Positions 23,039-43,636 of a stretch of DNA of 64,000 nt are shown one piece after another. Under the pieces are notes generated by a model. That model made no database searches. It was not told the origin of the DNA and saw only the letters and a list, made by a program, of their open reading frames with translations. The stretch's first letter is position 1; each line of letters starts with the position of its first letter. This DNA is from Psammoneis japonica (taxonomy: Eukaryota): positions 248,001 to 312,000 of the forward strand of contig QPGO01000030.1 of NCBI GenBank assembly GCA_008632985.1, written 5' to 3'. The position numbers were made by a program, and so were the translations under genes.

Positions 23039-24846
23039 AACAAGGTTGCGATTAGACATCGGGAACCGTTGTAAAGCTCCTTCTCAGCCGTTATCACTAA
23101 ATCGCTTGCAAAAAGCAACGCACGTGCTCTCTAGCAATAAAAAAGTCTAAAATAATACTCTAGTAGAGCACGGAATCGCTACCAGACACGGGAATGATTA
23201 CCTACGGATGGTGTGTTGTGAGGTCACTTCTTGTCGAGTTTCTTAAGACGATTTCGACCGCCGCAGAAGGATGTGCATTGAGATTCTCAAGCATGCCGTG
23301 AAGGCCGCGTTGTCTATACCCGATACTGGAAAGGCTCACCTCTGCATGTGGTGCAGAGCTTTGAACAAATGATCCTTTTGCTCTGTTGCTCCACTGGACA
23401 GCTTTACTTTGTGTGGGTGCCGAGGTGCTTTCCTCTGGGTTCGGTTGTGTATTTTTTGTCTGCGTTCCAGCGAACAGCAGTGTTTGCAACCTGTTATTAA
23501 TGTTGCGGTCTTTGGGTCTTTGGTCTTGCCAAAATGAGTGTGGTCGATCAACTCCATAATTTGTTGCTTGGTAGAACAAGAGATGGAAAGGAAACGAACC
23601 AAGATGCTACAACTAGAGCATTGACTGAAGAGCCAGCCTTTATCAGCAACTGCTACCTCCTTCGCCTCTCCTCTACTAGCTCTACTACTACGAATAGAGT
23701 ACTGTAGAGAGAGTAGAGGTTAGGCAGGAGCGTTACATTTTTTGCTACTGGATGATTCATCGGGTAGAGGGTGTCCACCCCAATGCCGAATCAATGGCTC
23801 AATCGCATGCACGGTTCCCTTTCAAGATTCGAGAACATTGTGTTTGTCGGGCCCGCCCATGTTCAAGGTCAAGATTGACTCGCACGGTGACCGATTTTCG
23901 GCGGTGGAGAAGTATCTTATTGCGTACAATTACTACACGAAATGAGTACAGAGATTGCACGACCAACTTATGAAAATGCTACCTAGTGCTTGCGCGGCAT
24001 TGCCTTGGTTTGAATCAGGTTGTAATGAGGCTAGAGAGACAGAAACCGAATTGGATCCGAGATTTAGTTCCAACAGCGGTAAATATTTGTCTCGTTTCTG
24101 CTTTTGTATAACGCGTTGGGGCTGCTCTCTACCGGTAGGCCTAGCAGTATTCAATGTAGATGGATGTCTCGTACCGTGGCCTATGATAAGTCGGCCTAAA
24201 TCGGATTGCTCACAATTATGGTAGATACCTTTTCAAGCTACAAGTCAACTAATGATGCGCACCAAATACACAAGGCAGTACGGCCCTACCTGTTAACCAA
24301 TGTTGGTGATTACTTTACGTATAAAAGGGCAAGAAAGGAAGATGAAGAAGATGGATCTTTCAAAAACGAGTTGAGCCAAACATTCCCGGTACACAGTGCG
24401 AAGTCAGCTCAAGCAAGAGGAGTCTTAGCAAAAGAAAGAATATTGATTTTGATGTTGAGTAGGATTGCTCTATATTATATTTCCCTTTTTTGCTCTAAAT
24501 TGCTGGATAGAGTAGAATTCTTCCCTTGATTACCAGTACTTCCCAACAACGATACAAATCGCATATTGAACTCTATGATCCGATGATTTGGTCACAACCG
24601 ACTGATTTTTTTCGGTTGCTTCACCAAAATGGATCACGGTATCAGAGATGCCTCTTCTTAAGAAGTAGAATTCTTCCGCAGATTCGTCACGTTGCTACGA
24701 GTCGGTATACCAGAAACTCAGAAACTCCATTCAATCCCATTGTAAGTTGCAATCCTTCCCTCGAGAACCCCTCTTGAAAACGTAGTGATGCCATAACACA
24801 AATAGACTCTGCCGCAGGATGAATATTGACTGACCCCTGTTTGTCC

Positions 24847-25450
24847 TTAGGCGGCTTTTTTACGATTAGCCCAGACCCTTTCCTTGCGCTTGGCGGCTTG
24901 CACCTCTTGACGCATGCGGTGTAGAAGCGGAACATCTTCGTCCGGTCGACGTCGGCGGAGGCGGAGCTTCTTCTGAGCAGCGGGCTTTTCGCTTGTGCCA
25001 AAGCGACGTTCGTTGATGATTTTTTGACGTGCCAATGCTTGTATCTTTCGACGGTCGAAGGGTGATTCACGTTTCTTGTCCTTCGAACGTTTTTTAGTCT
25101 TGCGGACTTTACGGATGGTGCGTTTGTAAGTGGTCATGGCGGTTTTGGGCACTTTCGTTTCACGAGAAGAGTCGTCAAGATCGTCAGAATAGCTGGCAGT
25201 GCTCGATCGCTTCCTCTTTTTATTGTTCGACCGCTCGGCATGAATCTGGATAGGAATCGTCTTGGATGGCTTGGTCTCAGGGACTTGGAAAGTCGCGACG
25301 CACGTCTTGTCGACGTTCGAAAGTTGAACGGCTTGCTTCAACGCGATGAAGACGGCAAAGGCAAAGAGCGCATGTTCGATGGGAATGGAATAGCGCCGCC
25401 GAAGATGGTAGAGAGCGTCATGGTGAAGAGAAGAAGAGAGGTCTGCATGA
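24847..25450 (-). CDS. Hypothetical Lys/Arg-rich protein (start uncertain, possible frameshift near 25340)
   Basis: Coding-like GC/CpG-rich sequence; the 164-aa ORF has NLS-like basic clusters; no recognisable family. Confidence 0.4.
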
Positions 25451-26539
25451 TGATGTAGACTAGTAAGACGTAAGTCGATGCTTGATCAGTGGTCAACTTC
25501 GGAATTGTGAGAGGTTCAGCGTGATTGCGGTTTCGACGGCTTGCTCGGATGGATTGCTTCGACATACTAGACTTTACGTACATTCTACGGACGAACAAAT
25601 GTATCGTCAAAACCATCCGTCTATCACGAATGAAAAGCGGGCGGGCAGGTTTTGTACACAAAATATTATAGTAAAACAATCATACCATGTTCAACGCTGC
25701 TTGACGCGTGCAACAAACAAAATGTTTCTTACAAGGTACGATAAATATTCAACATTGCATAAGAATATAAAAATGAATTTCATGGGAATTGGGCGGAGGA
25801 ACTTTTTCATGGAACGCAAGCTCGCGCTCGCTCGCTCGCGATCGCGTTGTTTTCACAGGCTCGCTCCATCTTCAACCGTGCGAGGTAGAATGACTTTGTC
25901 GTGTCAGCTGCAGATGAAGGCCAGTGTACAACGGTCCCATTGCACATGAACATTGCGGGGATTGCTTCCGATGATTTGAATTGTGAAGCATGGATCTGGG
26001 CAAGGAGAAAACCAAGGAGTCCAAGAGACTGGCAGCAACAAAATAGCGGGAAAAAAAGAAGCAAAAGAACGCAGGGAACATCAGAAGAAGGAATCATCAC
26101 AAGACCAACGTGCAGCGAGACTGCAATGCAAGGCAGCACAGAAAGTGGATTGGCAGGGCAAGGAGTCAGAGAACCAACACAAGGTGAGGCTGCAATGATG
26201 CAAGGTGGCACCACAGAAAGTGGGTCGGCGGAGCAAGGAGTCGTCGGAGAACCAATGTGAAGAGAGGCTGCAATGCAAGGCAGTGCAGAAAGCAGATTGG
26301 CGTGGCCAGGCCTGCAGGGAGCATTGACCACTTGTCTTTCTTTGCAGGTGTGGGTGTGCGCCATTGTGTGCTGCGTTGCCTGTGTGTGCGCAGAGCCCCT
26401 GCCGGGGATGGCATTGCAGCGGCAGGGTGGCAGGGCCGCCACACTGGTGATGTGGATGACCATTGTGTTTGATGGCTCATGCCATTTTGGGGGCTGCAGC
26501 AAGGTGCACGGACACTCTTTTTTGTCCAATTTGCTGCCA

Positions 26540-26990
26540 AAAAAGCATGTCACACAAACTCACTTGTTGTTTGATGTGTTTTTTTTCCAATGTGACTGTT
26601 TCATGTGCAGCTCACAACAAATTCTCTTCATCCAGCAAAGCTCAATGCATTTTTCAACTTGCCATGCCAGCAATCCTGATTCTGCAGCACTTTCAAGCTC
26701 TTCTGAAAAAAGAGTTCCACGCACCCATTGCAGGGAATTTGATGATTTTTTAAGAAGTCCCCCCACAAACTCCAATGTCCTCAATGATCATTCTGTGAAT
26801 CCAAACAATGCATTTGTGCAAACAACACATGCTGTTCCAAAATCTGAGGGACACACTTTCCAATTCGGGCCGACTGCCCAAGGGACACAAAAAGTCTGCA
26901 ATCACCAACCACTGAGTGGTCAATGAAAAAATTTGCTCTCACAGTGCACTGGGCTCTTGACAAAACTTGTTTTTTGAACTCAGCCACAGC
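26540..26990 (-). pseudogene. Relic reading frame of an unknown protein
   Basis: Frame FIDHSVVGDCRLFVSLGQSARIGK..SQNDH*GHWSLWGDFLKNHQIP..FFRRA*KCCRIRIAGMAS*KMH*ALLDEENLL*AAHE is interrupted only by TGA codons that revert to CGA (Arg). Confidence 0.45.
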
Positions 26991-27539
26991 ACAACAGTTG
27001 TGAATTTTGGAGTGTCATTTGTTGGCTGAGTTGTCGAAATCAGCAAAAATCACAATGAATGAAACATGTGGCCAATTTTTGTGCACACACACCAAGTCAA
27101 TCCAGTTGTTGTTGTGTGTGGGTTTGAGCATGCTGACAATTTGAGCCATCCATTTGTCAGTTGGTGTGCATTTGTTTTTTGGTTTCCAGCGATGTTTGCT
27201 TTGTGCTGTGGCAATGTTCGATGTTTGGCACATGCTCTTGGCTCCTGCTCTTGTTCCAGTCTGTCTTTCTGCTGCCTTTGAACTCTCTGTTCTTCAAGCC
27301 ACTGCCCTGCTGTCTGTCTCATTGTCTCTTGCAGTCTGTCCAACATCTCACTGTTCTTGGCTGTGCTGGCATTGCGCTGTGCTCCAATCTTTGTGTTTCA
27401 AAGAGAGTCAGTTTTTGTGGCAGCTTTTGATGGTGAGACATGAAAGCAAAATCTCTGGCAAAAGACAGCAGAGAAGTTGTCAACTTCTTGGCATGTTTTC
27501 TTTGGCAAGTGTTGCACAATGCTGCTGCTTGCTTCTGCT

Positions 27540-28318
27540 CATGCATGTTGTGCTCTGTTTTGGCTGTGGCAGTGGATTTCTGCTGGCAAACACCAAATCA
27601 TGTCTGCTGTCTGTGCAGCTCTTCCTTGTTGCTCTGTGAACATGTCAGTTTTGCCTCTTGCAGGAGATTGCAGGGGGGTGTTCAGATGCCATGCTTGCAC
27701 AAGTGCTGGCATCAATGGCTTGCTTGTTGGAGAGAAGGAGGAGCATTTCTTGCACACCCAACTCCACAGCCCAGACTGTGTGAGTGGCAGTTGTGAGCAA
27801 GGCTTTGGTGAAAGAAACTCATTCAACATGGAGACTTTGTGCAAAGGTCAGCAGCACACAAACAATTGATGCTGCACTGCAACAATTGCATTGTCAACAA
27901 GATTGGCACTGGAAAGGCTCAATCTTTTGACAACATCTCATGACAGGAAAGCTGAACAAGGCTGCAAGCCTCCAAAAATTGTGCCGTTTGCAGTCAATGA
28001 AGTTCAGCTGCACATCATTTCTGGCTTGCATCTCAGCCAACCCTCCTGTGAGATCTGTTTGTGCTTGAACTTAAGACCAAAATGAAACAGAAGAAGGCTT
28101 GCCCATTCATCACAGCTTGTCATTGCTTCCAACAAAGAGAATCTTGTTTGAAGAATGCCGCCGCAAATTTCTCCATTCTCCTCCTCAAGCCTTTTTGCCA
28201 CTGCCAAACAACTCTGCATTTCTGGCTTCTTGCCCCATGCATTGCTTTTTAAAGTTTTGTTCGCCAGCCAACACTCAGGAATCAAAACTTTGAAAGGGCA
28301 GTTCTGGAGATTGGAAAT
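27540..28318 (-). repeat. Left arm of a ~770-bp inverted duplication (partner ~30034-30800)
   Basis: e.g. ttgtcaacaagattggcactggaaaggctcaatcttttgacaa (27891) is the reverse complement of ~30406-30448; similarity is continuous over the whole arm. Confidence 0.93.
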
Positions 28319-29109
28319 TGTCTGACCTTCAATGAGTGAAAAAGCACAAAAAATGGCACCAGTTTTTTTTTTGTTTGCCACAAGCTGCTTGCTCCCATGC
28401 CACACCTCTGACCTGTTGCCTTTGCCACAGCATTTCTTTGTTGGTGGGTGCAGAGTCCTGTGTGTCATTGGCGCCTTTCTGCAATGTTTTCATTGGTTGT
28501 TTGTGCACTGCTTGGATGCATCCTGTGTTTTTGTGTTGTGTGACAGTGACATGCCTTTGTGCCACATGGAGCCAAGCCAGTTGGCCTGGTGGCAACCATC
28601 GTCTGTGCCATTTTGCAAGCCATTTTCTACAAAAAGACTTTGTTGTGTGTGTGTGCATTTTTGAAGTTTGAGTCAACTTTTAACAAGTCATTTTGTTGGT
28701 CTTCATTGCCTGCGCACCTCACTTGTGAGTTGTCATTTGTTCAGCAGCTGGATGTTCAACATTGTTTGCATCAGATGCAGTGTGTCTGTTTGCAAAGAAG
28801 ATTTGTGTCTCAGTTTTTGTGATTTTGGTCAGCTCTTCTGTTGAGAATGAAACTTTGACATTTGTGCTGGTCTGCACAGTTTGTTTGTGTTTGTGCAGGG
28901 TTGCTGTTGCAGCTGGTCTTTGCAACCGCAGCTGATCCACACATGCACAACAACAACAACCCACCCCCATGGTGCTGGATGTGTGCCTGCAAAGAGCCAG
29001 AGCAGCATCGCCCAGCAGAGACATGAGGGCATTGCAGCTGCAGCACCTCCTCCTCCCCTGCAAGCAGCTGCCCACGCCATTGTGGTTTTGTCCCCAGCAG
29101 GTCAGTGGA

Positions 29110-30050
29110 GACTTGAACTTCCCAACTTCAGAGCAAAGTGACCTCATGGACTGATGGCACCAACCAAGAACCCAACAAGCAACAGTCAGCAGGCTGAGCA
29201 CTGGCAGTGTCTGGCAGACCTCAGGCAACACTCTGAGAACTGTGTGGTCAAGCATTGAGCAGAGTGAAAGGCCAGTGATGTGCACTTGTGGGGCCCTTTT
29301 ACATCCTCCTGCTGGCTAGAAGTGCACTTCAAACTCCCAAATCCAGAGAGAAAGGACCCCATGAAAGTGCCAGCCAACCTCACAACTGCCAGCAGATGGC
29401 ATTGGTGGTCTTTGGTGGGCCCCAAGTGAGACTTCAAGAGCTGTGGTTGGGCGCTGCAAGGTTGATCTCATGGCATTGTGGCCCCATGTCATGTTGTGCC
29501 CAACAGCAGGAGCAAACTTGAACTTCCAAGCTCCAGAGTCCAAGGACCCCATGACAGTGCCAGCCAACCTGAGAACTGCCAGCAGAGGGCATTGGTGGTT
29601 TTTGGTGAGCCCCAGGCAAGACTTTGCCAACTGTGTGGCCAGACATTGCAAGGTTTGTCTTGAAGTGCTGTGGCCCCAAACAATGTCACATTGTGCCCAA
29701 CAGTGGCAGACTTGAACTTCCAAACTCCAAAGTCTGAGGACCCCATGATGCTGGTGCCAACCAACCTGACAGCTGACAGCAGAGGGCATCAGTGGTCTTT
29801 GGTGGGTCCACTTGCAACTTTGAGAACTGTGACTGGGCATTGCAAGGTTGATCTTGCAGTGTTGTGACCCCATGTCACCTTGTTGGCCTTTCCAGCAGAA
29901 GCAGACTTGAGCTTCCAAACTTCAGAGTGCAGGGAAGCCAAGATGGCATCAGCCAACCTGACAACTTCCAGCACAGGGCATTGGCAGCCTTTGGTGCACC
30001 CCAGGGGTTGTCTCCAACAGAAGCCGACTTGAGTTTCCAAACTCCAGAGC
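29110..30050 (+). repeat. About five degenerate ~190-215-bp tandem units (relic of a ~64-aa protein repeat)
   Basis: Units begin acttgaacttcc-like at ~29111, 29326, 29516, 29709, 29905 and 30027 (partial) and share gaccccatg, gccaacct, cagcagagggcat and tgcaaggttgatct. Confidence 0.85.
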
Positions 30051-30800
30051 TGCCCTTTCAAAGTTTGATTGCTGGGTGTTGGCCAGAGAGCAAAACTTTA
30101 AAAAGCAATGCCTTGGGCATGCCAGAAATGCAGAGTTGTTTGGCAGTGGAAAAACAGCTTGAGGAGGAGAAGTGAGAGTGGCACTCTTCAAACAAGTTTC
30201 TCTTTGTTGGAAGCAATGACAAACTGTGATGAATGGGCAAGCCTTCTTCTGTTTCATTCTGATCTTAAGTTCAAGCAAGAATGGATCTTACAGGAGGGTT
30301 GGCTGAAATGCAAGTCAGAAATGATGTGCAGCTGAACTTCACCAATTGCACACCACCCAAGTTTGGAGGCTTGCAGCCTTGTTCAGCTTTCCTGTCATGA
30401 GACATTGTCAAAAGATTGAGCCTTTCCAGTGCCAATCTTGTTGACAATGCATTTGATGCAATGTGGCATCAATTGCCTGTGCTGCTGACCTTTGCACAAA
30501 GTCTCAATGTCAAAGGAGTTTCTGTTGCCAAAGCCTTCGTTGCAACTGTGCCACCCACGCAGTCTTGGCATGGAGTTGGGTGTGCAAAGAATGCTCTCCC
30601 TTCTCTCCAACAAGCAAACCATTGTTGCCAGCACTTGGACAAGCATGGCATCTGAACAACCCTCTGCAATCTCCTGCAAGAGGCAAAACTGGTGCATTCT
30701 TCACAGAGCAACAAGGAAGAGCCACACAGACAGCAGACATGATTTGGTGTTTGCCAGCAAATGTCCACAGCCACAGCCAAAACAGAGTGCAATGTGCAAG
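30034..30800 (+). repeat. Right arm of the inverted duplication
   Basis: Reverse-complement match to 27540-28318; in frame with the last tandem unit (DLSFQTPELPFQSLIAGCWPESKTLKSNA). Confidence 0.93.
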
Positions 30801-31430
30801 CATGGGCTGAAACAAAAACACAAAATCAAATTGCAACCATGTTGGCCAAGATGACTTGGCACCCCAAAACATGTTTGCAGCAGTTTGTTGTCAACCAACA
30901 GCTGCAAAGTGATGCTGAATGAAGCACAAATTGTGGCCCAGGCTGCAATCTGGGCTGACATTGGAGTTTGTCAAATTTTTGATGTGATGATGAGATCAAA
31001 CTAGTTGATGAGCATTCATGGCAACAGGAAGCATGAGTGGTGGCAGGGATTGAATGATGACACATGGCAGCTGTGGGGGCTGCTCAACATTGTAAATCAA
31101 CTGGGCTCTGGAGTGCAAATTGACATTGGATGGAAGGAAAGGACTCATGTCTGCAGTGGTTTTGTGTCTGCCAAAAGGGTTGGGGGGGGGGGGGTCAACG
31201 AGAAGTTCATTTTGAAAAGAGAGTCCTCTTTTCATTGTTGTCAGTCATGTGACAAGGACATGATGGAGTGTGACAGGGGTCCACTGTTGTCACACAAACA
31301 GTGGATCAGCAGCTGAGTTGTGTGGTGCTCAATGCAACAAAGAGCAGACAAATGCAGCAGAAACACATGAAATGCATGCAACAGGCAATTGAGCCAAAGC
31401 TCTTCTAAACAAATGACTCAGCTGTGAACA

Positions 31431-33383
31431 TGTTGGAACATTGGGTCAGAGGCAGTTTTTGTTGTGTGGACAGACAGAGCTGCAGTGTAAGATGCACTGA
31501 CAATGGTGGACAACATGGCAAGTTTGCACTCACAACTTGGATTGAGTTGCAGGTCTTGCACTTGCTTTTCAGCTTCTGCACCCAGTTGACATTGCAATGG
31601 CAGCTGGTGACATCAGTTGATGTGTTTGCAAACTGCACAATGAGTCAGGAGCAAGACTGAACATGCACCAGTCAGCAGGCTGCAAAACTCCAACACACAA
31701 GCCAAAAAGTCATGCGCAACACTCAAAGGAGTGTTGTTGCTGTTCAAGGACTGGGAAGTTGAGAAGAATCCACAATGTGAGTGCTGGGAAGTCAAGAGGA
31801 ATCCACAGACAAATGGGCCACCCAGGAGCGGTCAATGAGAATCCAAATGAAAGAGCCACAAGGTTGACAGGAGTCCAAAGGTGCACCTTGTGTCAGCAGA
31901 TTGCAGCAAACAAGCTGGCTGGAGGAGGGCAAAGAAACAATCTTTGGATGGCCTCCCTGTCAAAGAAGCTGTCAAGGGTTAATGAAAGAGGGCATGGCAA
32001 GGTTGCATTGGGGTTGGCAAGACAGAGTGTGCATCTGTTGGCAAGCTGTAAAACTCCAACGCAAGTCCCAGAAAAGATGGGCAAAGATGCAGCTGAGTGC
32101 GGAAGCACAAAAGAGTTGAAAGAGTGGGTGCACGATGCCATGACGAGTTAGGAAGAGCAGATGGATGCACAGAAACTGTGAAAAAGATTGGTGAGTGTGT
32201 TGGAAGAGTGTTTGGGCTGGACATGCAGGTGTTGGTGTCTCTGGCCTGAGGCAGCACAACATGCCAGGAGAGCTGGTTTGTTCATTGCTGGGAGACACCC
32301 CACATCAGAGAAGGATGAGGTGATCTGGGGCAAGAAGCACAACCACCATGTGGAGCAGAGTTCAATGTGCAAGACACAGAAGGCAAAGGTGTTCAATGCA
32401 ATTGTGTGGGGCAATTTGCAAAGGCCATTCATCACAAGCTTGAAGAAGGAGTGGCAGAGTTTGCAAGAATTGCACAGGAGTGAGACATGATGACAACACT
32501 GCTGAGTGTTCTCAAGTCAATGTTGTTTGACACAAATGAGAAGACAAACTTGCATGTCCAGGTGGTCAAGGCTTGGAAGCAATTGGTGCTCATTTGTCAA
32601 GACAAAGGAGAAGTGCTTCAAGAATGTCACAATTGTTTCATGAGCATGGTTGAAATGGTGGAAACACATCCTGTGTGGCAGGTCATTCCAGAAGAGGTTG
32701 CCAAGAAAGAAAACGGGTTCAGCAAGGGTGCTGATGACACCCAGAGTGAAGAGAAAACAAGTCATTGGCAGTGATGCCAATGGAAGGTGCCAACAATTGT
32801 TGGCATGTTTTGAAAGACCTGGATCAGCAGCTCACATTGGGGGTTGACTCATGCCCCAATTCAGACAAGGAGGCGCTGCAGGTGTTGGACACTTGTGGGA
32901 CCAACAAGAAACCTGAGGGCATGAGCTTTGTGCAGAATGACAAGAAGAAGGTTCCATGCTGGAATTGCAACAAAGTCAGAGATGTGAGGAAAGATTGTCC
33001 TGACACCAGTGATCATTCATTGGTTGAGCCAGATGATGTGGGCCATGGGAGTCAACAAAAAAAGGCCATGCAGTGTTGGGTGGGGTGGTTTCTCTTGTGC
33101 TTGATGTGCATGAGGTCAATCAATTGACAACTTGTGGGAAGGAGTGTGTTGGAACATCAGGGTTGGAGGTGGTTTTCATCACATGGATGGAAAGAGTTGC
33201 AGTGTGAGATGCATTGATGATTGTGGACAATGTGGCAAGTTTGCGCTCATCATTTGGATTGAGCTGCACAGGTCTTGTGCTCACTTTTGGCTTCTGCACC
33301 CAGTTGACACTGCAGCAGTTGATGTGTTTGCAGACCACATGGTGAGTCAGGAGATGGCAAGACTGGGTGCACACCGGTTGGCA
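31431..33383 (+). mobile_element. Decayed gag-only (non-autonomous) LTR retroelement
   Basis: Direct repeats 31431-31677 and 33147-33383 (both TGTTGGAACAT...GCA). Purine tract gggaaggag before the right repeat. Internal Gag relic QDKGEVLQECHNCFMSMVEMVE, LGVDSCP..ALQVLDTC and knuckle CWNCNKVRDVRKDCP. No pol and no recognisable TSD. Confidence 0.8.
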
Positions 33384-34399
33384 AGCCATGAATCCTCAAC
33401 AGAGCACCTTCAAAATTTCTGCCAATGCCTGTGCTCAGAACTCACAAAAAAAACATTAGACAGTGGTGCAAATGCCACATTCATTGAATGCAGTGGAGGC
33501 AGTCTGGTGCCCAAATCTCTTTACAACAAGATTGTCTTGGTGCCATGGTTGACAAGCATGCAAAGAGACTCGTGCACTGGGCCAATCTTTTCAGAGGAAC
33601 AATGGCGTGTCTGTTGTTGTTGCACTTTTTGCACACAGTGAGCACAAGACATGCATGGGTGAATGTGTCGTGGAACTTTGAAAAAGTGGGTGCATGAATT
33701 TTCTGCCCACCCACCCAAAATCAACTGCTGTCTGAGTGTGCAGCATGCCTTCTGCTGGCTGGCACTTTTCCAATGACAAGTGCACAAACTCAAAAACCAT
33801 CAACAGCAAAAATGGCACTCATCTGTGCAATGCTCATTTCAAAGACAATCATTTCACCACCGCTGACAGCCCCCATCCAAAATTGTGGCATTTTGGCAAG
33901 AAAGCTGAGTGTGTTGTGAGTTGCAGTTGTGTGTCTCATGGTGCAGCGGCATGTTTTTGGTGGTTTTGGTGTTGTTGCCTCTCCCTCTTGTCTTGCTCAC
34001 AGTCATCTGTCTCATCATGTTCTGGAGCAAGGTGGCAACATTCTACAATTCGAGATGTTGGTGCTTCACAAGTGAGTTGGATTGCTTCATGGACTGTGGG
34101 GGCACACTCAGTGACCAGCACTGCCAGTCATGATTTGGCTGGGGAGGATGCAGAGGAACTGCTTCATGTCAATTGTGCATGACAGCCAGTGTTGGAACAT
34201 CAAGTTGAGAACCCAGATGCTTGGAGAGCTGTGCCATTGTCAATGTCCCCAAGATTTGTTTTGTGTTTTGTTCTCACTCTTTTGAGTGAATCATCTGATT
34301 TGCATGAATTGCATCATGGTGTCAGCAGGCACCCATTTCACATTGCAAGTTTGAAGTTTTGTTGAGAATTTCTGGCAAAACTGCAGCTGCCTGAGCAAC

Positions 34400-35290
34400 C
34401 AGGGCAAGTGCAACAAGCAGCAGAGGAAGCCTTGGGATTCTCTTTTGGCAACATTGGCTTGCTGGCTCAACAGCTGGACTTGGAACTCTTCAACAAAACA
34501 ATCTGGGTTGGCCCACATGTGACAACTTGGACACTGACATTGTGCATCTGATTCATTTGTTTGTGCACCCTCACAGTTGAGTGTTGACCAACCTTGCACT
34601 CATGAGCACCCTCATTGTTGGGTGTGTTGGAGCCACATTCATGTCATTTGTGTGCAACGGCTGGACTTGGAAATTGACAAAAACACCTGGATTGGCTTTT
34701 GTGCAACAATTTTGAGCCCTTGTTGTGTGTTGAATTATGTGGTCACATGTCCATGTGGTTGAGTGTGATCAATCTTGCACTCATCTGTGCTGTTGGGTTT
34801 GCTGGGTGCACCCCTGCATTGTTTGTGCACAACGGCCACCAGACTTGGAAATTGACAAAAACACCTTCATTGGCTTTCATGCGCTGATTTTGGGCCATGG
34901 TCATTTGCACAATTTGTTTGGTCACCATGCATCCTCAGAGTTGAGTGTTGTGGTCAATCTTGCATGCCCATGTTGTTGGGCATGATGTTGGATTCACCAT
35001 TGATGGCCTCTGCTCAGAGCCAACAAAACCTGGCTTGGCTTTTTGTGCAGCATTTTGGACTTGCCGCTGTGTTTGGTGGTTTGATTCATTGGGCTGTGTG
35101 TCCTTGCAATTGAGTGTGATCAATCTCACCCTCACCCTCATTGGTGGGCTGGCCAGAACCGCTTTTGTGTCAATTTTGCATGACGGCTCTGCTTGGAACT
35201 CAACAATGAAGCCTGGAGTGGCTCTTGTGCAACAATTTTGGACTGCAATTTGTGTGTTTGGTTCATTTGGTCATGCATCCTTGCAGTTGA
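34400..35290 (-). repeat. About five degenerate ~170-185-bp tandem units (relic of a ~58-60-aa protein repeat)
   Basis: Plus-strand unit marker (g/a)ttgagtgt at ~34576, 34758, 34940 and 35110, with gttgag at ~35285; shared gacttggaaattgacaaaaacacct. The minus frame reads LNCKDA*PNEPN..PGFIVEFQ..RVRLITLNCKDTQPNESN. Confidence 0.8.
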
Positions 35291-36399
35291 GCAAGACTTC
35301 AAGAGATTGGTTCAGTGTGCACTTTTGCTCCATTGCTCCACTGGACAACTTTAATTTGTGGCAGTGCCAAAGTGCTGTGTTTGCCACAGTGTTTGCAGCT
35401 TGTTGTCAATCTTGCTGTCTTTTTGGGAGTTTTTGTAATCGGCAAGGTTTGGATGAGCAGCAACACTCAAAAGAGTCTTTGTGGCACCTGCAGTTTGAAT
35501 GTGTTGTTGTGCACAACACAAACCTGCACTCAGATGGCTGGCGCTGTTCAGCTTGTTGAGATGTGGAAAAAGAATTTGAAGTTGACATTGTTGTTGGCAC
35601 AATTCATGGAATCCACATCCTCAATGCTGGCCAAAGGTGCAAATGAACTGCTGCGTCCATGAATGGCAAGCCAGGTGGTGAGCAGCAACACTCCATCCAG
35701 GACATTGTGGTGTCAGTGGCTCAGAACATGTGCACAACCAACATGCACCCACTTTCAAATGTTGCAGATTGGCGTGGAAAACTTGAAATGTCAGAATCAA
35801 GTGACGAGACCTGGAGCTGCAAAGCAATCATGAGCCATGTGCAGTGGGCAGGAATGCAAGGAGAGCAGTGCAGACAGACAAGGGGCTCAAGTTCATGCAT
35901 CACATTCAGCCTTGCACTCCATGGCCTGGCTGTCAAAAGGGCCAAGAAGAAGATTGCAATCTGAGTTTCTTGTCACGCAACAAACCAAATGTGTGGTGCA
36001 CACCCTGCACATCTTGGGAACTGCCAGCTGCAGCCAAAAGGGTGTGCTGGCATCTCAAGTCATTTCAAATGAGGAAATGCTCAAACCAAACACCTGACAA
36101 CAAAAGCCAGCATGCCTGTGCATGCCATGCATGTGATCCCAGTGCCTTGTCACAGCATGTGCACCTGGTTGGCAAGGATTGTGTCTGGGGCCATTCTCAG
36201 GGGTGCAAACCATGCTCCTCTTGGTGATTTCACAAGGCAATCTCTTGACAAACAAACACAGAGGTGCCTCTGCCAGCTTTGGCAAAATGGCTCACCTTTG
36301 CTCAAATGCCTTTCATGTCAGGATCACCAACAAGAAATGCCACAACAGCTTTGGGGCGACCCCAGGGTGGTGGTGTGCGAATGACCTTTTTGAGGTGTT

Positions 36400-37215
36400 T
36401 CTCAAGAGATCCAAAGCACCAACATCACACCATTGGCCCGTTGGCAGTGACAAAATTGCAAGCTGGGTGGGTGTTTGAGGCACTGTGGCCATGACCCAGA
36501 GAAGAGGAAAATGGGAACGGCGGCTTCTCTCCCCTCTGTTGTTTTCATGAACTCTTGCCTTTTGAGCTCAACCGCCATGAAAGAAACCAGTTGACACAAA
36601 ACTGCAGCAGACTCTCTCCACAGTGGCAGCATGAGCTGCTTTGCAAAAAGAGGAGCTCCACTCAGCAAAGTGGACCTGAGTTCAATGTTGATCATGGGAT
36701 CCTGTCTGTGCCACATGCGACGGCTTGGGGCCAAAGCTTGAAATGAGACAGCTTCTTGTTTGAAAACCAAGAAAGAGTTGCGCCAGAATGGCAGCACCTC
36801 TTTGAAAAGAAGATTCAACCAGCTGTCTCTTCTTGACCTGGCATGGATTCTTGACCCACATCAAAATGCTTGCAGTTTTTTGAGCTGAGTTTTCTCCACA
36901 TGGAGGAGCAGGCACACACTCGTTTGCATGGGAGGAGAGCTGCTCACAAATCACAGCACTGGCAGAGCCTTGCTTTGGAAATGGAGGTGCTGCGCAGCAC
37001 CTGTCAAGAAGGTGAGAGTGCCCTCACATTGTAAAACTGTGCACTCATTTTTGTGGTGCAGATCTCTCAAACTTAACTTCTTTGGACAAGCCAGCACCAA
37101 GCAACTCTCTGGCAGCAGTCGTTGGGCATTTCCACCTGCACTTTGGGCGGGGTCAGTCATTTCAAGTGTCACTCCAAACCTCTGTGCTCATGGGGTCACT
37201 GCACTGGGTGCATCA
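36400..37215 (-). pseudogene. Relic gene of unknown function at the right edge of the hypermutated domain
   Basis: Protein-like ORF fragments 36951-37172 and 36402-36818, downstream of a CT-rich leader and a CpG-intact promoter-like segment (37320-37456). Confidence 0.4.
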
Positions 37216-37461
37216 TCTGGAACGCGACCAGCTGAAGATCTCAGAACAGAAAGATCTTGCCTTTCGTTCATTTCACTCTCTAACTCTACTTTCTTCACGC
37301 CACGAACACAGGCAGCAGGCTAAACTAAAGGATTTCAGATTGTTCGCCAAGTGAGTCTAATGATCTGAAATGACGATGCTGTGACGTGTTCGTGACGTCG
37401 ACCGACCTTCAACTCGCACGCGCACGCGACACGCGACGCACTCACCGCATCCACCAAGTAG

Positions 37462-37715
37462 TGTGAGCTAACAGTTTAATTAGAACTAAGTCGACAACTA
37501 GCCTTGTGATGAACACAGATAAACTGGTTGTGATTGCTTTGAATTTTGAAAAGGTGAGAAGACGAACGTCTCAACAAGTGTTTTCCAATAAGTGTTTGAG
37601 ATGTCTTCAACAATTTGGGGGCCGTACGTGTGAACAATTTGGGGCCATAGAAATCGAACATTGACAATCGAATGTCGTAGATGTCGCGAGGCATAAATAG
37701 ACGTCAACAGTCACA
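37462..37715 (-). repeat. 3' LTR
   Basis: 245/254 identical to 43383-43636 by manual alignment; contains an internal repeat aacaatttgggg(g)cc twice. Confidence 0.97.
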
Positions 37716-37726
37716 CTCCCTCATTC
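37716..37726 (-). other. Polypurine tract
   Basis: Minus strand GAATGAGGGAG immediately precedes the TG of the 3' LTR. Confidence 0.8.
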
Positions 37727-37737
37727 GATGAGATGGG

Positions 37738-40700
37738 TCACCAGCCGAAAAGCAAACGACGGAGCTTATAGAAAACCGCCTTAGGTAGCTGTTTCGTGAA
37801 GATGTCGGCTTGTTGATCGGCAGCACGAATGGGTTGAACTTTGATGCGGCCGTTGGCGACTTCGTCGCGAAAGTGGTGAAGTATGACGTTGAAGTGTCGA
37901 GTGCGTGGGCGCATTTTGGGTACGCGAGCGATCTCCAGTGCGGCGGAGTTATCCTCGAACATCGTGCAATGCATGACAGGTGTCGTTTTCACATTAATGT
38001 TTCTCTCCTTGAGTTCTTCCAACAGGCACATGATAGATTTCACATGTCTGGCAGCTGTAGAGAGAGCAATGTATTCAGATTCTGCACTGCTGAGAGCAAA
38101 CATTGTTTGCAGCTTGGAAGCCCAATATAGGGGCACGTTTGCAAATTTGATAGCAAAACCAGAGCGAGAGCGAGCTGTATCAGGATGGTTTGCTGCGATG
38201 GCCTTGTCCCAGTTGCCACAAAAATCAGCATCAACATAGCAATCAAGGCCATATATGTCGTCTGGTTTGATGATGTACCCTTCATTTCGGGTGGCCAGTA
38301 GATATCTTCCAATGTGTTTGATGGCAGCGCCGTGAGAAGCTTTGGGATTCGACGTGAAGCGGGCGCATTGGTGAGCAGCACATGCAATGTCACCTCTTGT
38401 TGATTTTTCTAAGAAGTTCAGTTTGCCAACAACAGAGCGGTAGTTCCATGATTCCTGAAAAGGTGCACCATCCGGATCGGGTCCGACAAGTTTTGTAGTG
38501 CTTGCTGGGAGCTCGTGTGTTTTGGTGTTGTTTGAATTCGAGTTGTTGCGAGTGCCAATAAGACCAAGGTCTTGGAGAATACTGTCAATAAGTTGTGGTT
38601 GGTATAGTTTGAAAGAGCCGTCCGGCAACGTTTCGATTTTGACGCCGAGGTAGTCACCAATGTCGCCTTCATCTGATATACGTGTACGTGTACCGAGGTC
38701 CTTGATACATTGATCAATCTTAGCATCCGAAGGATCGAACATAAGACCGTCGTCGGTATAAACTAGGAATGTGGTTGTTCCACGGTAGAAAACACATTCG
38801 TCGAATGAAGACTGTGTAAAGCCAATGTCGAGTAGTACGTTTCGTAAGAATATAAACCACGTTCGTCCAGCGTCTTTTCCTCCATATATATTTTTCAATA
38901 CTTCCAAACAATGCTTGTTACGATCCAGATTAGGAAAGTTGATGCCTCTTGGTAGTTCCATAAAGGTGGGCCTTGGAATGTCAGCGTGTGGATATGCCAA
39001 TACAAAGTCAACTTGTCTTGATTTCCATTTGAAGAGGATGGAGAGAATAAGGAATAGACGGATGATAGTCCAAGAAAGTGTTGGAGCATAGGTTTCCTCG
39101 TAATGTTTTCCTTTCTTCATTTTGTGTCCTCCAAGTTGAGTCGACTTTTCCACTTGTATACTTTGCGTGTGCCGATACGTCGCTTGCGCTTCATAGACCA
39201 TATTGCAGGAAGAATAGTCTCACCCTGTGGTACATCAGCCTTTTCAATAACTCGCCAATGTTTCCTATCGGTATGGTCTTGGACTTCTTTAACCATAGCT
39301 TTCTTGAATTCGTGAGCGTCTGGTTCGCGAAGAGCCTCGTGCATGTAGAGAGTGTCCGGGTCATTGGAAGCTTTCATGCTGTACAAAATGGGGTCTTCTA
39401 GTTGATTTCGGTCGTTGTCGATGAGATACATGTCCTGGGCAATAGCTTCATAAGTGGTTGCAGCGTATGAGACAATATTTTGTTCACGTTGAAGTTGTGA
39501 CTCAATGGCCCTTTGGGTCATTTGGACTTTACGACCAGAGCGAGTTGTGACCGTTGGTGTTGGCGATCCTGAGTCGGCTGCAGAAGTTTCAGAAGTCTCG
39601 TTTGTTGTTGATGGACCTCCCTCATTTGTTGGAGTAGCGGTTTCTGTTTGATCCGAGTGGCTTAGAGATGATCCTGTATCATTTGTATTGTCCATATCAG
39701 TTGGTGGTAAGTCCGATACATCTGGAGCAGGAGCTGTAGTTTGGCTTTTGTCTTGACTCATCAGTTGTTTTTGGGAGAAAATCTGACGCGTGCTTGTTTC
39801 TTGTAATGACACTTTTCTTGCCATACACTTCGAGGGATGACGGATGAGCCTTTGACAGTCTCAAATAGGTCGTCAAATTTGACATGGTATTGTGGAGAGG
39901 CAAGTCCTGTTTCAAGGTTAAGGATAAGTGCCACAGATCTGGCGTGTCTGGGTGAAGGTCCGAGATAAATGCCCACTCGTGCTCTTGTTTCCCACTTTGG
40001 TAGATGAGAGCCTGACTGTAACTTGTTCTTTAATACATATACAGGACATCCAAAAGAGTGGAAGTGTCGTAGTTTTGGTTTGACTTGCACGTTTGCGAAG
40101 AGCTCTATTGGAGATTCGTTTCTAGGAGATCTGGCGGTATGATTGTGCACGTTGTTGGCATAGCGTATAGCATATGGCCATAAGTGGTGATCAATAGCGT
40201 TTGGCCAGCGATGGTGAGCGTGTATAAGTTGTGTTCTCGCTTGCTCTTGTAGGTCTCTAATGCGTTTTTCTGCTCTGCCGTTTTGAAAGTGTGCATTGAC
40301 TCCGCAATAGGTTATATGCTGCCCTTGTTGACGTACCGATTTGATGAATGCGTTGTCAGCGAATCGTCCATTGTCGGCGTGATAGTGTTGGATACGGACT
40401 CCGAGGGAGCGGGCAAATGCTTCATAAGCAACTTTGGCGTGTAGCGTTTCTTCTGAGGTGATCGATTTTTGTAGGTATACGAATGACAGGTCGCTATAGT
40501 GGTCGACGAAGACCGTGACGTAGCGATATCGTTGACGTGTTGGTATGCCCTTGAGTTGAGCTATTAGTCCAGGCGTGGTGGCGTCGAGTTGGTCGACAGA
40601 TACTACTTGTCCGGCTGCAGTGGCTTTGAAAATTTTGGTTTGTTGTGTGCCCTTGGTTCGCCATGGTACCTTGGTGGCTTTACCATAGCGGCATGCAGCG

Positions 40701-41920
40701 CAGACGGGTACGCGGCAATCAGCGAGGCGCTTGGGTAGGTCTCCTGAGTTAACCATATGTTTAATGCGTGAGAATGGCAAGTGTCCGAGTCGGTAGTGCC
40801 AAAGTAGTAGTTCGTTGGTAGGAGTCAGGTCGTCTGGGAATGTTTGGTCCTCGACGACTGGAACGCCAAAGTTCATATCCGAGAAGTCCACCGTGTTGGG
40901 TGTCGTGGCTTCTGGTGTAGCCGTAGTTGAGTTTGTAGGCGTTGTAGCAGCTGTTGAGTTGCTGTTATCGATGGCCTCGTTGAACGTGTGACGTGCAGTT
41001 GGTGCAGTGGTCTGTTCTTCAGGTAAGTCTTCAGGTTCGGGTTCGATGATGTGTACATTTTGAAATACTTTAGGTTCTCGTGCTTGCGAGTTGTACTCAC
41101 GCTCAAATTCGTTGTGCTTGTCATAGGATGGAGCGGAGCGGAAGACTGGTACGTTTGCCTTGGAGAGCGGCATAGTGCGAGAGTATTTCTCGTCTTGCCA
41201 TCGAAGTATCGTTCGATCGTGAAGTGTCTTTTCATAAGTACCATCCGGATTGTTGGAAATTGGTGCGAGTACTTGTGCCAAGTGTTGTGGCGAGAGAAGA
41301 CGAATTGGAAGCGTAGGTACGTAGTACGTGTTCGGTATGATAAATTCATGAAGTAAGCCATCGTCGTCTTCAACCTTCCATTTAACTTTGCCCTTGAAGG
41401 TCGATTTGGCGTTACCACTGGCAGCTTCCACGACAACGTTGACCTTTGTTGGTGGTTCAATGAAGTCGTCTTTGTTATTCGTCATGCAGTAGGAGGCATG
41501 GTTATCAACTCCGATGTTGAACGAGTCTGTGTCGAAGTTGTGATCGCGGTGACCGTCGCAGTTACAGCCATGGGAGCAGGATGCGGTATGGCATGAGGCG
41601 TGCTGCGACTTGAGACCCATTAGTCGGTAAGTGGCTTTGTTGCACATAATGAAGTGTCGGCGTTTTCGTCGGATATAACGCATGTTGGTCTTGAGATAGT
41701 TTGGTTTCCTTGGTGGTCTACGACTTCTCAGGAGATATTCCGTCATTCGTCGTAACCAGGAACGCAGGAGTGGAAAGGAGTAGAGCCAGTTCAGCAGTTC
41801 CACCATAGCGCAGTAGATCATGTTGAGTGCGCAGAAGAATGGTAGGAAGACTGAGCATACACCGCAGAACAGCCACAACCGTAAGTACAACTTGACTCGT
41901 AATGCAGTGTTGGCGAACAC
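37738..41920 (-). CDS. pol: Copia Pol (protease, integrase, RT, RNase H), split by frameshifts near 39790 and 39125
   Basis: IGVDNHASYCM (PR); LWHYRLGH..C..C, VSVDQL, HADNGRF, QNGRAEKRIR (IN); ETYAP, RQVDFVLAY, NIYGGKDAGRTW, LVYTDD (RT); YVDADF, SSAESEY, FEDN, ADIFTK (RNase H). Confidence 0.95.
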
Positions 41921-43264
41921 TCATTCTTGATCTGATACGTCTTGTACGCCAACATTTGCCATGGAGGCAGTTAGGTCTGATTCGGCCTTGTCCTTGACGG
42001 TGGAGCAGTCCTTGGTAAGGTGAGCGGACCAATACTCGTGGTTCTTGCACCATTTGAATGTTTTACCCTCAACCGTCTTGGTGTGCGGTTGTCCGTCTTT
42101 AGGAGCTGCGTTGCGCCAGGCATGTTTTCCGTAGAAGAGGCATTTCTTGCATCCGTTGGATAGGATCTTGAACCTCTGGCGCCTGTTGTTATTGTTGGAA
42201 CCCGATTCTTTCGTTTTGTTGCCCTTGGTGGAGCTCTGAGTGGTTTTGTTGCTGTTGCCAGTAGAGCGTGGAGCGTTGCGAGCTTTGGTGTCACGAAGGG
42301 TCTTGACTTCGGCTTGTAGCGCTACGATGGTCTCTTGCTCTTTGGTTGGTGCCATCCACTTTTCAGATTCGATAAGGATCTTGTACTTGTTTTCAGCCTT
42401 GAGCATGAGAGCATGTACATCGAGATCTGATCCATCTTCATAGTCGCTCTTGTACTTCTTGATGGACTCGATGAATTCTGAGTCGGTGCACGTGAGGTAA
42501 GCCTTGAACACGTTGTTCAGCAGATCGGAACTAGTGTGGCCGCGAGCAGCAAGTTTCTTTTCCAAAGATTTGACGTGGTTGTTGAAAGTCTTGATGTTTT
42601 GACCGTCAATTGTAGCCATGTAAGCGTCTAGATTGCCCATTTGGTCACGGATTACCGAGACAGTAGCCCTTGTGTCGACTTGAGCCTTTGATAGAAGTGC
42701 CTTGAGGTAGGCTACACCGCATTCTTCGTCTCCAACAGTGTACTCAGCCTTTTCTTCCGTTGCCATGATGGTCTTGGAGGGCTCGTCTAGGGTGCTCTGG
42801 AGACATACGAGGAGTTGGTAGTTATTCTGCGCGTTGCGTTGCGCCAGATTGAGGTATGTAGCGGATACCGTGCGAATCTGCTCAGCTGAGATTTGTCCAT
42901 ACTCGGTGAGCATGTCCTTGTTCTCGGCTGGCAAAGCAGGAACTGCGCCATGGTTGATGTTGATCGTGAGAATGTCGTTCCAACCATTGGTTTTAGAACG
43001 GACCGCGAGTTCTTCTAGGAAGACTGGGATGTTGGGCGATTCAAGACTGAACTGGGTGTCCAACGGCTTGGTCGCGTCTGCGAAAACGAGCGCGTCACCT
43101 TTCTTGGTGTAGTCCAAAACGTCTGCACGGGCCAGCGCTGGTGACTTGGCGAAAGGTCCTGGAGCAGCTGCTGCTGGTGGTGCAGGCATGTTGTTCACAA
43201 TCGGCTGGACAGCCGCCTGGACAGCTTGTGCGATGGCGTTAGCGAGCGCGTCAGCGTCCGCCAT
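41921..43264 (-). CDS. gag: Copia Gag
   Basis: Intact 447-aa ORF inside the 5' LTR, with a C-terminal WCKNHEYWSAHLTKDC Cys/His motif and a TGA stop in frame with pol. Confidence 0.9.
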   Translation of the reverse strand: MADADALANAIAQAVQAAVQPIVNNMPAPPAAAAPGPFAKSPALARADVLDYTKKGDALVFADATKPLDTQFSLESPNIPVFLEELAVRSKTNGWNDILTININHGAVPALPAENKDMLTEYGQISAEQIRTVSATYLNLAQRNAQNNYQLLVCLQSTLDEPSKTIMATEEKAEYTVGDEECGVAYLKALLSKAQVDTRATVSVIRDQMGNLDAYMATIDGQNIKTFNNHVKSLEKKLAARGHTSSDLLNNVFKAYLTCTDSEFIESIKKYKSDYEDGSDLDVHALMLKAENKYKILIESEKWMAPTKEQETIVALQAEVKTLRDTKARNAPRSTGNSNKTTQSSTKGNKTKESGSNNNNRRQRFKILSNGCKKCLFYGKHAWRNAAPKDGQPHTKTVEGKTFKWCKNHEYWSAHLTKDCSTVKDKAESDLTASMANVGVQDVSDQE

Positions 43265-43369
43265 AATGAGGTCTTGAAGTTCCTGAGCACGTCTTTGTGC
43301 TCCTCTTGTTAAACGGCGTATCTTGTTGGTTCGGAGAGAACGTTGCTGGTTCGATTAAGAACACTTTAT

Positions 43370-43382
43370 CGCAGAGGAAGCG
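43370..43382 (-). other. Putative non-canonical primer-binding site
   Basis: Abuts the 5' LTR and lacks TGG; the plus strand CGCAGAGGAAGCG(TG) resembles the D-arm of eukaryotic initiator tRNA-Met. Confidence 0.55.
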
Positions 43383-43636
43383 TGTGAGCTAATAGTTTAA
43401 TTAGAACTAAGTCGACAACTAGCCTTGTGATGAACACAGATAAACTAATTGTGATTACTTTGAATTTTGAAAAGGTGAGAAGACGAACGTCTCAATAAGT
43501 GTTTTCCAATAAGTGTTTGAGATGTCTTCAACAATTTGGGGGCCGTACGTGTAAACAATTTGGGGCCATAGAAATCGAATATTGATAATCGAATGTCGTA
43601 GATGTCGCGAGGCATAAATAGACGTCAATAGTCACA
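43383..43636 (-). repeat. 5' LTR
   Basis: TG...CA termini, followed by the AGTAG TSD. Confidence 0.97.

Follow-up and report, generated by a model that had tools for sequence, protein, structure and literature searches.

The 64,000-nucleotide window analyzed here (positions 248,001 to 312,000 of the forward strand of the Psammoneis japonica contig QPGO01000030.1, assembly GCA_008632985.1; all coordinates below are those of the window) contains an 11-kb island in which the dinucleotides TpA (TA) and CpG (CG) have almost disappeared and CpA (CA) and TpG (TG) prevail. The island occupies a divergent intergenic gap and ends ~300-500 bp short of each flanking gene. Its left neighbor lies on the minus strand at 24,847-25,485; to the right, lipoyl synthase is encoded on the plus strand at 43,739-44,869 (start at 43,739), and the right edge of the domain is ~310 bp from this start codon once the insertion of a Copia element is subtracted. 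The depletion itself resolves into a TA-free domain, a CG-poor core and two shoulders:

25,930-37,280, no strand: TA-free domain, with 26 TA over 11.25 kb, where the flank rate would give ~455
~26,510-36,350, no strand: CG-poor core, placed from CG positions and 100-bp bins
25,930-26,510, no strand: left shoulder of ~0.6 kb; TA gone, CG partly lost (~20 CG)
36,350-37,280, no strand: right shoulder of ~0.9 kb; TA gone except for two sites, CG partly kept

Within these limits, we recognized several repeats and the relic of one retroelement, a small gag-only element whose flanking direct repeats (31,431-31,708 and 33,147-33,416) are read as its long terminal repeats (LTRs):

31,431-31,708, plus strand: 5' LTR of the gag-only LTR retroelement relic, a direct repeat flanking gag
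32,089-33,061, plus strand: gag pseudogene, spread over three frames, with frameshifts, TGA stops, a decayed CCHC zinc knuckle and no Tyr codon
33,147-33,416, plus strand: 3' LTR of the gag-only element, sharing 76.5% identity with its 5' counterpart
27,542-28,297, plus strand: left arm of an inverted repeat, 88.9% identical to the right arm over 740 aligned bases
30,053-30,798, minus strand: right arm of the inverted repeat, pairing with 27,542-28,297
29,099-30,075, no strand: tandem array of ~190-bp units lying between the two arms of the inverted repeat, in five to six copies
34,607-35,262, no strand: tandem array of ~175-bp units
26,104-26,280: 75-bp tandem repeat within the left shoulder
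35,322-35,376, plus strand: short homologous stretch matching the unconverted 23,375-23,429 outside the domain

An earlier note on this DNA had described the content as relics of transposable elements, inverted repeats and tandem repeats. The repeats are confirmed; the transposable-element label for the domain rests on the one gag element.

Dinucleotides were counted over 25,900-37,300, with the sequence to its left and right as flanks, and all values refer to this single locus. TA occurs 29 times (observed/expected [O/E] ratio, 0.04) and CG 87 times (O/E, 0.13), together with 1,271 CA (O/E, 1.95) and 1,394 TG (O/E, 1.81), in agreement with the near-absence of TA and CG and the dominance of TG and CA that had been reported over 11 kb. 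The corresponding O/E values for TA, CG, CA and TG are 0.57, 1.06, 1.07 and 1.08 in the left flank and 0.62, 1.01, 1.15 and 1.14 in the right flank, and the G+C fraction of the island (0.48) is the same as that of the flanks. Conversion was measured per 300 bp as CA+TG divided by the sum of the pyrimidine-purine dinucleotides CA, TG, CG and TA. This fraction averages 0.963 inside the island (minimum, 0.862) against 0.582 ± 0.066 outside (maximum, 0.763); no 300-bp window resembling the island was seen in the rest of the 64 kb. The TA edges at ~25,930 and ~37,280, located in 100-bp bins, are sharp to ~100 bp. The CG edges are softer, with CG recovering further inward on both sides.

The summed frequency of TA, CG, CA and TG is nearly the same in the domain (243.9 per kb) as in the flanks (238.2 per kb), and this conservation of the pyrimidine-purine total fits conversion rather than deletion or foreign composition. 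An in silico model in which flank TA and CG were randomly turned into TG or CA yielded 231 CA+TG per kb, compared with 234 observed in the domain, whereas conversion of CG alone yielded 192. Decay of CpG through 5-methylcytosine (5mC) in methylated transposons, as in vertebrates, plants and basidiomycetes (TCG type), resembles the pattern here in turning CG into TG or CA, in a loss confined to silent repeats and in the protection of CG by GC-rich contexts (GCGC and CCGC). Unlike 5mC decay alone, the domain has also lost TA, and its G+C is unchanged since the change from TA to TG or CA compensates. Fungal repeat-induced point mutation (RIP), a premeiotic process that responds to duplicated sequence and requires a RID-type enzyme, likewise consists of local, near-saturating transitions in repeated or foreign DNA, with sharp edges and destroyed coding capacity; however, RIP changes C to T mainly at CpA and creates TpA, whereas in the domain TpA is removed, CpA and TpG are doubled and G+C stays the same, a combination that departs from the RIP-type C-to-T signature.

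Polymerase eta makes A-to-G changes at WA motifs, and error-prone repair of this type in silent chromatin was among the candidate mechanisms of the earlier note, where it now fits worst. A WA-directed process should also erode AA, yet the domain has 170 AA/TT per kb, above both the flanks (154) and the simulation (163), and conversion is strictly at TA and near complete. We regard this route as highly improbable.

A profile-free HMMER search with the frame at 32,750-33,127 against 1.84 billion representatives returned nine matches at E ≤ 0.001, the best of which is a 343-aa gag protein with a CCHC knuckle (P0003; E = 4e-15). By tblastn of this protein on the window, the gag relic was placed at 32,089-33,061 on the plus strand, with 138 identical residues among 309 aligned. 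None of the 16 aligned tyrosines of the relative is kept in the relic: seven are now Cys (TGY), four His (CAY), two Phe, and one each Asn, Val and Leu. Four of the 17 aligned arginines are now CAT, TGT or CAG. In a second test, against an alignment of 15 gag family members, the relic keeps 84 of 152 conserved columns but none of the 13 conserved Tyr columns, six of which now read Cys and three His; at the overall loss rate of 0.45, the chance of losing all 13 is 0.45^13, or ~3e-5. The destruction of Tyr codons that had been foreseen for this domain is thus visible residue by residue.

Intact members of the family are not TA-poor; equally TA-poor relatives, which the earlier note had named as a finding that would overturn its proposal, were thus not observed. 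The Tyr content of the 15 relatives is 2.6-6.2%, and the DNA loci of six intact relatives, found on metagenome contigs via a five-sequence gag alignment, have a TA O/E of 0.47-0.71 and a CG O/E of 0.21-0.83, against 0.02 and 0.10 in the relic. Simulated conversion of the coding parts of these six relatives gave 232 CA+TG per kb, compared with 230.5 in the relic. Read against its relatives, the relic shows that TA was lost by transitions from ancestral TA and was not missing originally. Joint suppression of CpG and UpA is reported for RNA viruses and small DNA viruses (PMC5659819), and foreign or selected DNA that had always been poor in both would require no mutator. At this locus such an explanation is scarcely credible: the relatives of the gag relic have normal TA and Tyr, the frameshifts and stops of the pseudogene imply that no selection is acting, and changes after duplication are directly seen in the inverted-repeat arms and the gag-element LTRs.

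The gag-only element measures ~2 kb (31,431-33,416), and its intact relatives lie on 1.1-1.8-kb environmental contigs and on contigs of ≤4.6 kb, with predicted proteins of gag length (323-386 aa), which looks like a family of non-autonomous gag-only elements. At one locus of this kind (L001), an intact gag relative on a metagenome contig, a CG O/E of 0.21 is accompanied by a normal TA O/E of 0.66; CpG loss without TA loss therefore occurs in the gag family.

The two LTRs of an element are identical at insertion. Across the gag-element pair (260 aligned bases, with 51 transitions and 10 transversions), we found 17 CA-versus-TG sites, 10 in one direction and seven in the other, as well as two CA-versus-CG sites and one TA-versus-TG site. 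Because a CA/TG pair is the expected product of two separate hits on a single ancestral CG or TA, the discordance of these once identical sequences indicates that the changes arose in place, on either strand. The inverted-repeat arms carry 11 CA-versus-TG discordant sites (five one way, six the other) compared with ~24 expected if all conversion had followed duplication (p = 1.7e-4), so that part of the conversion preceded the duplication of the arms and part followed it. Copies within the 190-bp array show CA/TG swaps, some holding CG where others have CA, and CG-versus-CA and CG-versus-TG pairs are seen between repeat copies. The same direction of change emerges from the alignment of 35,280-35,480 with 23,340-23,540, an outside fragment with ordinary TA and CG: in the extended alignment around 35,322-35,376, TTAT, TTAA and CCGA of the outside copy correspond to TTGT, TCAA and CCAA inside. 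Along the domain, the order of CA and TG is random (1,347 runs versus 1,316 expected; z = +1.19), and this interleaving argues against one-strand RNA or cDNA editing and against a read-strand artifact.

Editing before integration would mean that retroelement RNA or cDNA was hyperedited by an ADAR- or APOBEC-like activity and then inserted. The one identified relic is indeed a retroelement, and edited retroelements are reported to have become fixed in vertebrate genomes (PMC4866542). Like the pattern seen here, APOBEC3 and ADAR editing produces clustered transitions that inactivate retroelements, and ADAR prefers U before the edited A, according to a preprint on Bigelowiella natans (Mettrop et al. 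2026, bioRxiv 10.64898/2026.01.13.699255). However, these activities work on cDNA (APOBEC3) or double-stranded RNA (ADAR), before integration and on one strand, whereas the changes in the domain are post-insertion, on both strands and extend to repeats that are not retroelements. The 17 CA-versus-TG sites run in both directions between LTRs that started out the same; across the 11 kb, conversion is just as strong in the tandem arrays, the inverted-repeat arms and the unclassified DNA, and neither strand is favored. Editing of this kind has, in our judgment, an even slimmer chance than the polymerase route.

The same comparisons bear on a technical origin, in which modified CG and TA bases in silent chromatin would have been miscalled by a long-read basecaller and ~10% divergence would have foiled short-read polishing. 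CG and TA are both self-complementary, like sites of maintenance-type modification, and the comparisons were made on assembled sequence. In addition, window proteins are absent from a 15-billion-protein collection (0 of 10 ATG-started frames in exact look-ups, eight from the flanks and two from the domain; likewise one domain frame), suggesting that the assembly may be recent. Yet CA and TG alternate randomly and not in read-length runs, discordance between the inverted-repeat arms is neither zero nor one-half (11 sites, compared with ~24 under independence), and the relics carry frameshifts, stops, transversions and indels, as old DNA does. CpGs are not known to disappear from long-read assemblies of plant and animal genomes with heavy CpG methylation. 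An artifact is therefore improbable, all the more as the same signature has been measured by Illumina sequencing in B. natans (10.64898/2026.01.13.699255). Artificial random conversion of the sequence was a further candidate and was rejected, given that repeat copies share most outcomes and that site survival depends on flanking bases.

Collectively, the repeat and relic comparisons show a loss by transitions that followed insertion and duplication, affected both strands and is confined to the domain. The proposal of a second, local mutator that converts TpA to TpG on either strand, alongside CpG decay, is borne out by the fates of the Tyr codons, the CA/TG discordance of LTRs and arms, and the random runs.

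To the right of the island, a Copia element (37,462-43,636, minus strand) is bounded by TG...CA termini and a 5-bp target-site duplication, AGTAG. As a whole it has a TA O/E of 0.66 and a CG O/E of 1.03, and it is composed of three parts:

37,462-37,715, minus strand: near LTR (the 3' LTR, facing the domain), with 12 TA and 11 CG
37,716-43,381, minus strand: internal part with gag, protease-integrase and reverse transcriptase (RT)-RNase H; normal TA and CG
43,383-43,636, minus strand: far LTR (the 5' LTR), with 20 TA and 11 CG

The two 255-bp LTRs differ at nine positions, which together cover eight TA sites: eight of the nine differences fall within TA dinucleotides, and the ninth is the base adjoining one. 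At every differing TA site, the near LTR has CA or TG and the far LTR has TA (12 versus 20 TA), while all 11 CG are identical and no CG site differs; the chance of all eight changes lying in one LTR is ~0.008. The LTR pair may capture the TA mutator at an early stage, or alternatively a RIP-like gain of TA in the far LTR, and no third copy of the LTR was found in the window. Loss in the near LTR is, in our assessment, clearly the likelier direction, since TA loss is demonstrated in the adjoining domain and has been measured in another system; the process may then be ongoing in this neighboring LTR. Set against the elevated mutation rate that characterizes the B. natans system, the ratio of eight TA-site changes to one other change between young LTRs is an indirect hint.

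In this Copia copy (37,738-43,354), gag and pol are separated by one in-frame stop and the frame of pol changes twice; the copy is probably dead. Its closest relatives in the protein collection are only 66% identical, and of the 120 RT matches listed, the only named one belongs to the diatom Fragilaria crotonensis (48% identity). Protein-atlas comparisons yielded only generic eukaryotic clusters.

Surviving sites are not a random sample of their kind. TTAA accounts for 9 of 26 surviving TA, compared with 4% of flank TA (p = 2e-7), GTAA/TTAC accounts for another 8 of the 26, and ATAT, GTAC and ATAC are absent among them. Surviving CG is enriched in GCGC (13 of 81, versus 5%), with CCGC also favored, and depleted in TCGA (3 of 81, versus 11%) and likewise in ACGT. 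Among the product 4-mers, whose counts are confounded by CG conversions, ACAA/TTGT is in excess by 11 per kb and ATGA/TCAT by 3 per kb, and at five of the eight Copia LTR sites ATAN changed to ACAN. Read as adenine deamination, this pattern would mean that A followed by T is favored and A followed by A is spared, which we offer as a lead and not as a result.

As the shoulders are TA-free with CG remaining and the Copia LTR differs at TA only, we read TA loss and CG loss as separate processes, and consider this likely. The competing possibility is that a single dual-specificity deaminase of the ADAT2 type acts on both A and C and produces both losses. The two losses share nearly the same domain, both are consistent with a preference for a 5' T (the ACAA/TTGT excess and the depletion of TCGA among survivors), and ADAT2 of amphioxus and trypanosomes is cited as editing both A and C in DNA (10.64898/2026.01.13.699255). 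However, the shoulders and the Copia LTR change TA without CG, ACGT is depleted as well, and the protection of CG by GC-rich flanks is the usual pattern of spontaneous 5mC deamination. The B. natans hypermutable regions, moreover, show only A/T-to-G/C changes, without a C-to-T excess (10.64898/2026.01.13.699255). A single enzyme for both losses is accordingly unlikely, and two processes remain the preferred reading.

The earlier note knew of no described diatom pathway of this sort. The kind of process has in fact been described, in the B. natans preprint, although our literature searches found no report of TpA loss in diatoms or in other groups. Mettrop et al. (bioRxiv 10.64898/2026.01.13.699255) sequenced 15 mutation-accumulation lines by Illumina and report hypermutation restricted to TpA in viral DNA integrated into the genome. 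Of 302 nuclear point mutations, 231 were located in an integrated giant-virus region and a virophage region, at a rate of ~6e-7 per site per generation (~1000-fold over background), and 230 of these 231 were A>G or T>C, all 230 on TpA. The hypermutation was present in only some lines. Across the B. natans genome, the authors list 124 clusters depleted of TpA and enriched in CpA+TpG (cut-offs: TpA O/E ≤ 0.43 and CpA+TpG ≥ 1.52), which are enriched for reverse transcriptase, DDE and zinc-finger domains. Their proposed defence is the deamination of adenine in DNA, with an ADAT2-like protein as the candidate enzyme, and they link an Asn in ADAT2/ADAT3 to the editing of DNA. The main text of the preprint has no mention of CpG, diatoms or flanking bases. 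Term searches of two diatom studies on transposons and chromatin (Maumus et al. 2009, PMC2806351; Veluchamy et al. 2015, PMC4504042) brought up nothing about a signature of this type; a diatom methyltransferase, DNMT4, is described as related to RID and of unknown function (PMC9998398).

The locus resembles the B. natans system in that only TpA is hit by the TA process, becoming TpG or CpA by strand, and in that the effect is confined to a discrete region of foreign DNA within a normal genome, here a gag-only LTR relic and repeats. The long-term footprint of the B. natans clusters, read there as genome defence, is the same TpA depletion with CpA+TpG gain. Several features set the locus apart. 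It is saturated, with a TA O/E of 0.04 compared with 0.45 in the nucleocytoplasmic large DNA virus region of B. natans (10.64898/2026.01.13.699255); the target identified here is the relic of an LTR retroelement, accompanied by inverted and tandem repeats, rather than a giant virus or virophage; and it displays flanking-base effects, with TTAA spared, that are absent from the main text of the preprint. On balance, assignment of the locus to the B. natans type of TpA hypermutation is supported, which means that the kind itself is not new. The locus differs from the described case in its saturation, its retroelement and repeat setting, an added CpG decay that is separable in space and time, and its flanking-base rules.

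We therefore favor, with a probability of roughly 0.72, two context-specific transition processes acting in a repeat graveyard, the TA step being of the B. natans type. On this explanation, the domain would be a graveyard of repeats and retroelement relics occupying the interval between two housekeeping genes that are transcribed away from each other, and after the arrival of these sequences both processes would have run nearly to completion in place. The first would turn TpA into TpG or CpA on either strand, site by site. Following the hypothesis of the preprint, it would consist of enzymatic deamination of A after T in nuclear DNA, converting A to inosine, which is read as G, by an enzyme aimed at silenced foreign DNA. 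The second would turn CpG into TpG or CpA, presumably by ordinary deamination of 5mC in methylated repeats, and the first would be faster or further-reaching than the second. Whether a chromatin or small-RNA mark spreading from the core, and stopped at promoters, directs the process is an evenly balanced question, although the position of the island between its two neighbors leads us to infer that promoters act as barriers.

As to chemistry, adenine deamination by an ADAT2- or TadA-like enzyme has somewhat less than an even chance of being the TA step. A thymine route would produce the same record: oxidation of the T of TpA by a TET/JBP-like enzyme to 5-hydroxymethyluracil (5hmU) or 5-formyluracil, which mispairs with G, would change T to C. 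Telomere repeats of trypanosomes carry base J at the T of TpA, and 5hmU in dinoflagellates favors TpA. The outcome (TpA to CpA, with TpG on the other strand) is identical to that of adenine deamination, and the sequence does not separate the two. Neither an enzyme nor a modified base of this type is known from this group, the window holds no evidence on the thymine route, and the sole published proposal is adenine deamination (10.64898/2026.01.13.699255). Thymine oxidation is thus an unlikely source of the TA loss.

Several observations weigh against the two-process explanation or temper it. The flank model does not reproduce all dinucleotides, with misfits at GC (74 observed versus 57 simulated) and at GA/TC (111 observed versus 138 simulated). 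As most of the flank sequence is coding and differs in kind from the domain, the gag-relative control was built as the better comparison; there the GC and GA/TC gap is absent, and the remaining dinucleotides of the relic fall within the range of its relatives. Unlike in B. natans, CpG loss here is near complete, so that the paucity of G:C-to-A:T changes reported there does not extend to this locus. The Copia LTR differences lack outgroup polarity, and a gain of TA in the far LTR by a RIP-like change of CpA to TpA would match them equally. Moreover, the 200-bp spacer between the domain and the near LTR keeps six TA, and the Copia RT frame keeps nine of 13 conserved Tyr, with one now Cys; a smooth, continuous spread from the domain is accordingly not borne out. 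No deaminase, methyltransferase or glycosylase genes were found in the window. Finally, the evidence comes from a single locus as it stands in the assembly.

Most of the 11 kb is unclassified, and a viral origin finds no support in its sequence. A Pfam search of 61 open frames of at least 90 aa in the domain reached no cut-off, with five weak hits (E = 0.017-0.077), and the 221-aa frame at 26,261-26,926 had no match in a word-indexed protein search. Comparison of the domain with the rest of the window by blastn and tblastx gave a single short match (35,322-35,376 to 23,375-23,429), and Rfam and tRNA scans of the window found nothing. The neighboring genes of the window encode topoisomerase II, Brr2/SNRNP200, a TRIP13-like ATPase, RRM proteins, lipoyl synthase, Nup54 and U1-70K. 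Unlike those of B. natans, which are intron-rich, the flank genes have very long uninterrupted exons, as in the 1,044-codon Brr2 frame. The 750-bp inverted repeat around the 190-bp array (27,542-30,798) would form a long hairpin RNA if transcribed, and this predicted hairpin could supply small RNAs and hence a targeting signal for silencing or editing.

A broader reading, which we put forward tentatively and hold to be less probable than not in its joint form, is that a TpA editor constitutes a widespread eukaryotic DNA-editing defence, this locus representing another lineage far from the first, probably among the stramenopiles, for instance the diatoms. Such an editor would work on any foreign DNA that bears a chromatin mark, retroelements and repeats among it, would spread from a core to the promoters and would outrun CpG decay. 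It would still be active, having converted 8 of 20 TA sites in the Copia LTR that faces the island, and its flanking rule, with A then T favored and TTAA spared, would serve as a fingerprint for identifying the enzyme.

The locus suggests that TpA mutation of foreign DNA can run to completion and that the process acts on retroelements and repeats, not on viruses only; it probably exists outside chlorarachniophytes. The locus also offers practical handles, namely, site-by-site proof from Tyr codons and LTR pairs, and a young neighboring element that has maybe been caught in the act. Should the pattern hold up across the genome and in cultured material, the hunt for an adenine editor of DNA that occurs in nature would become directly testable, and protist genomes would gain a dinucleotide signature for annotating dead foreign DNA.

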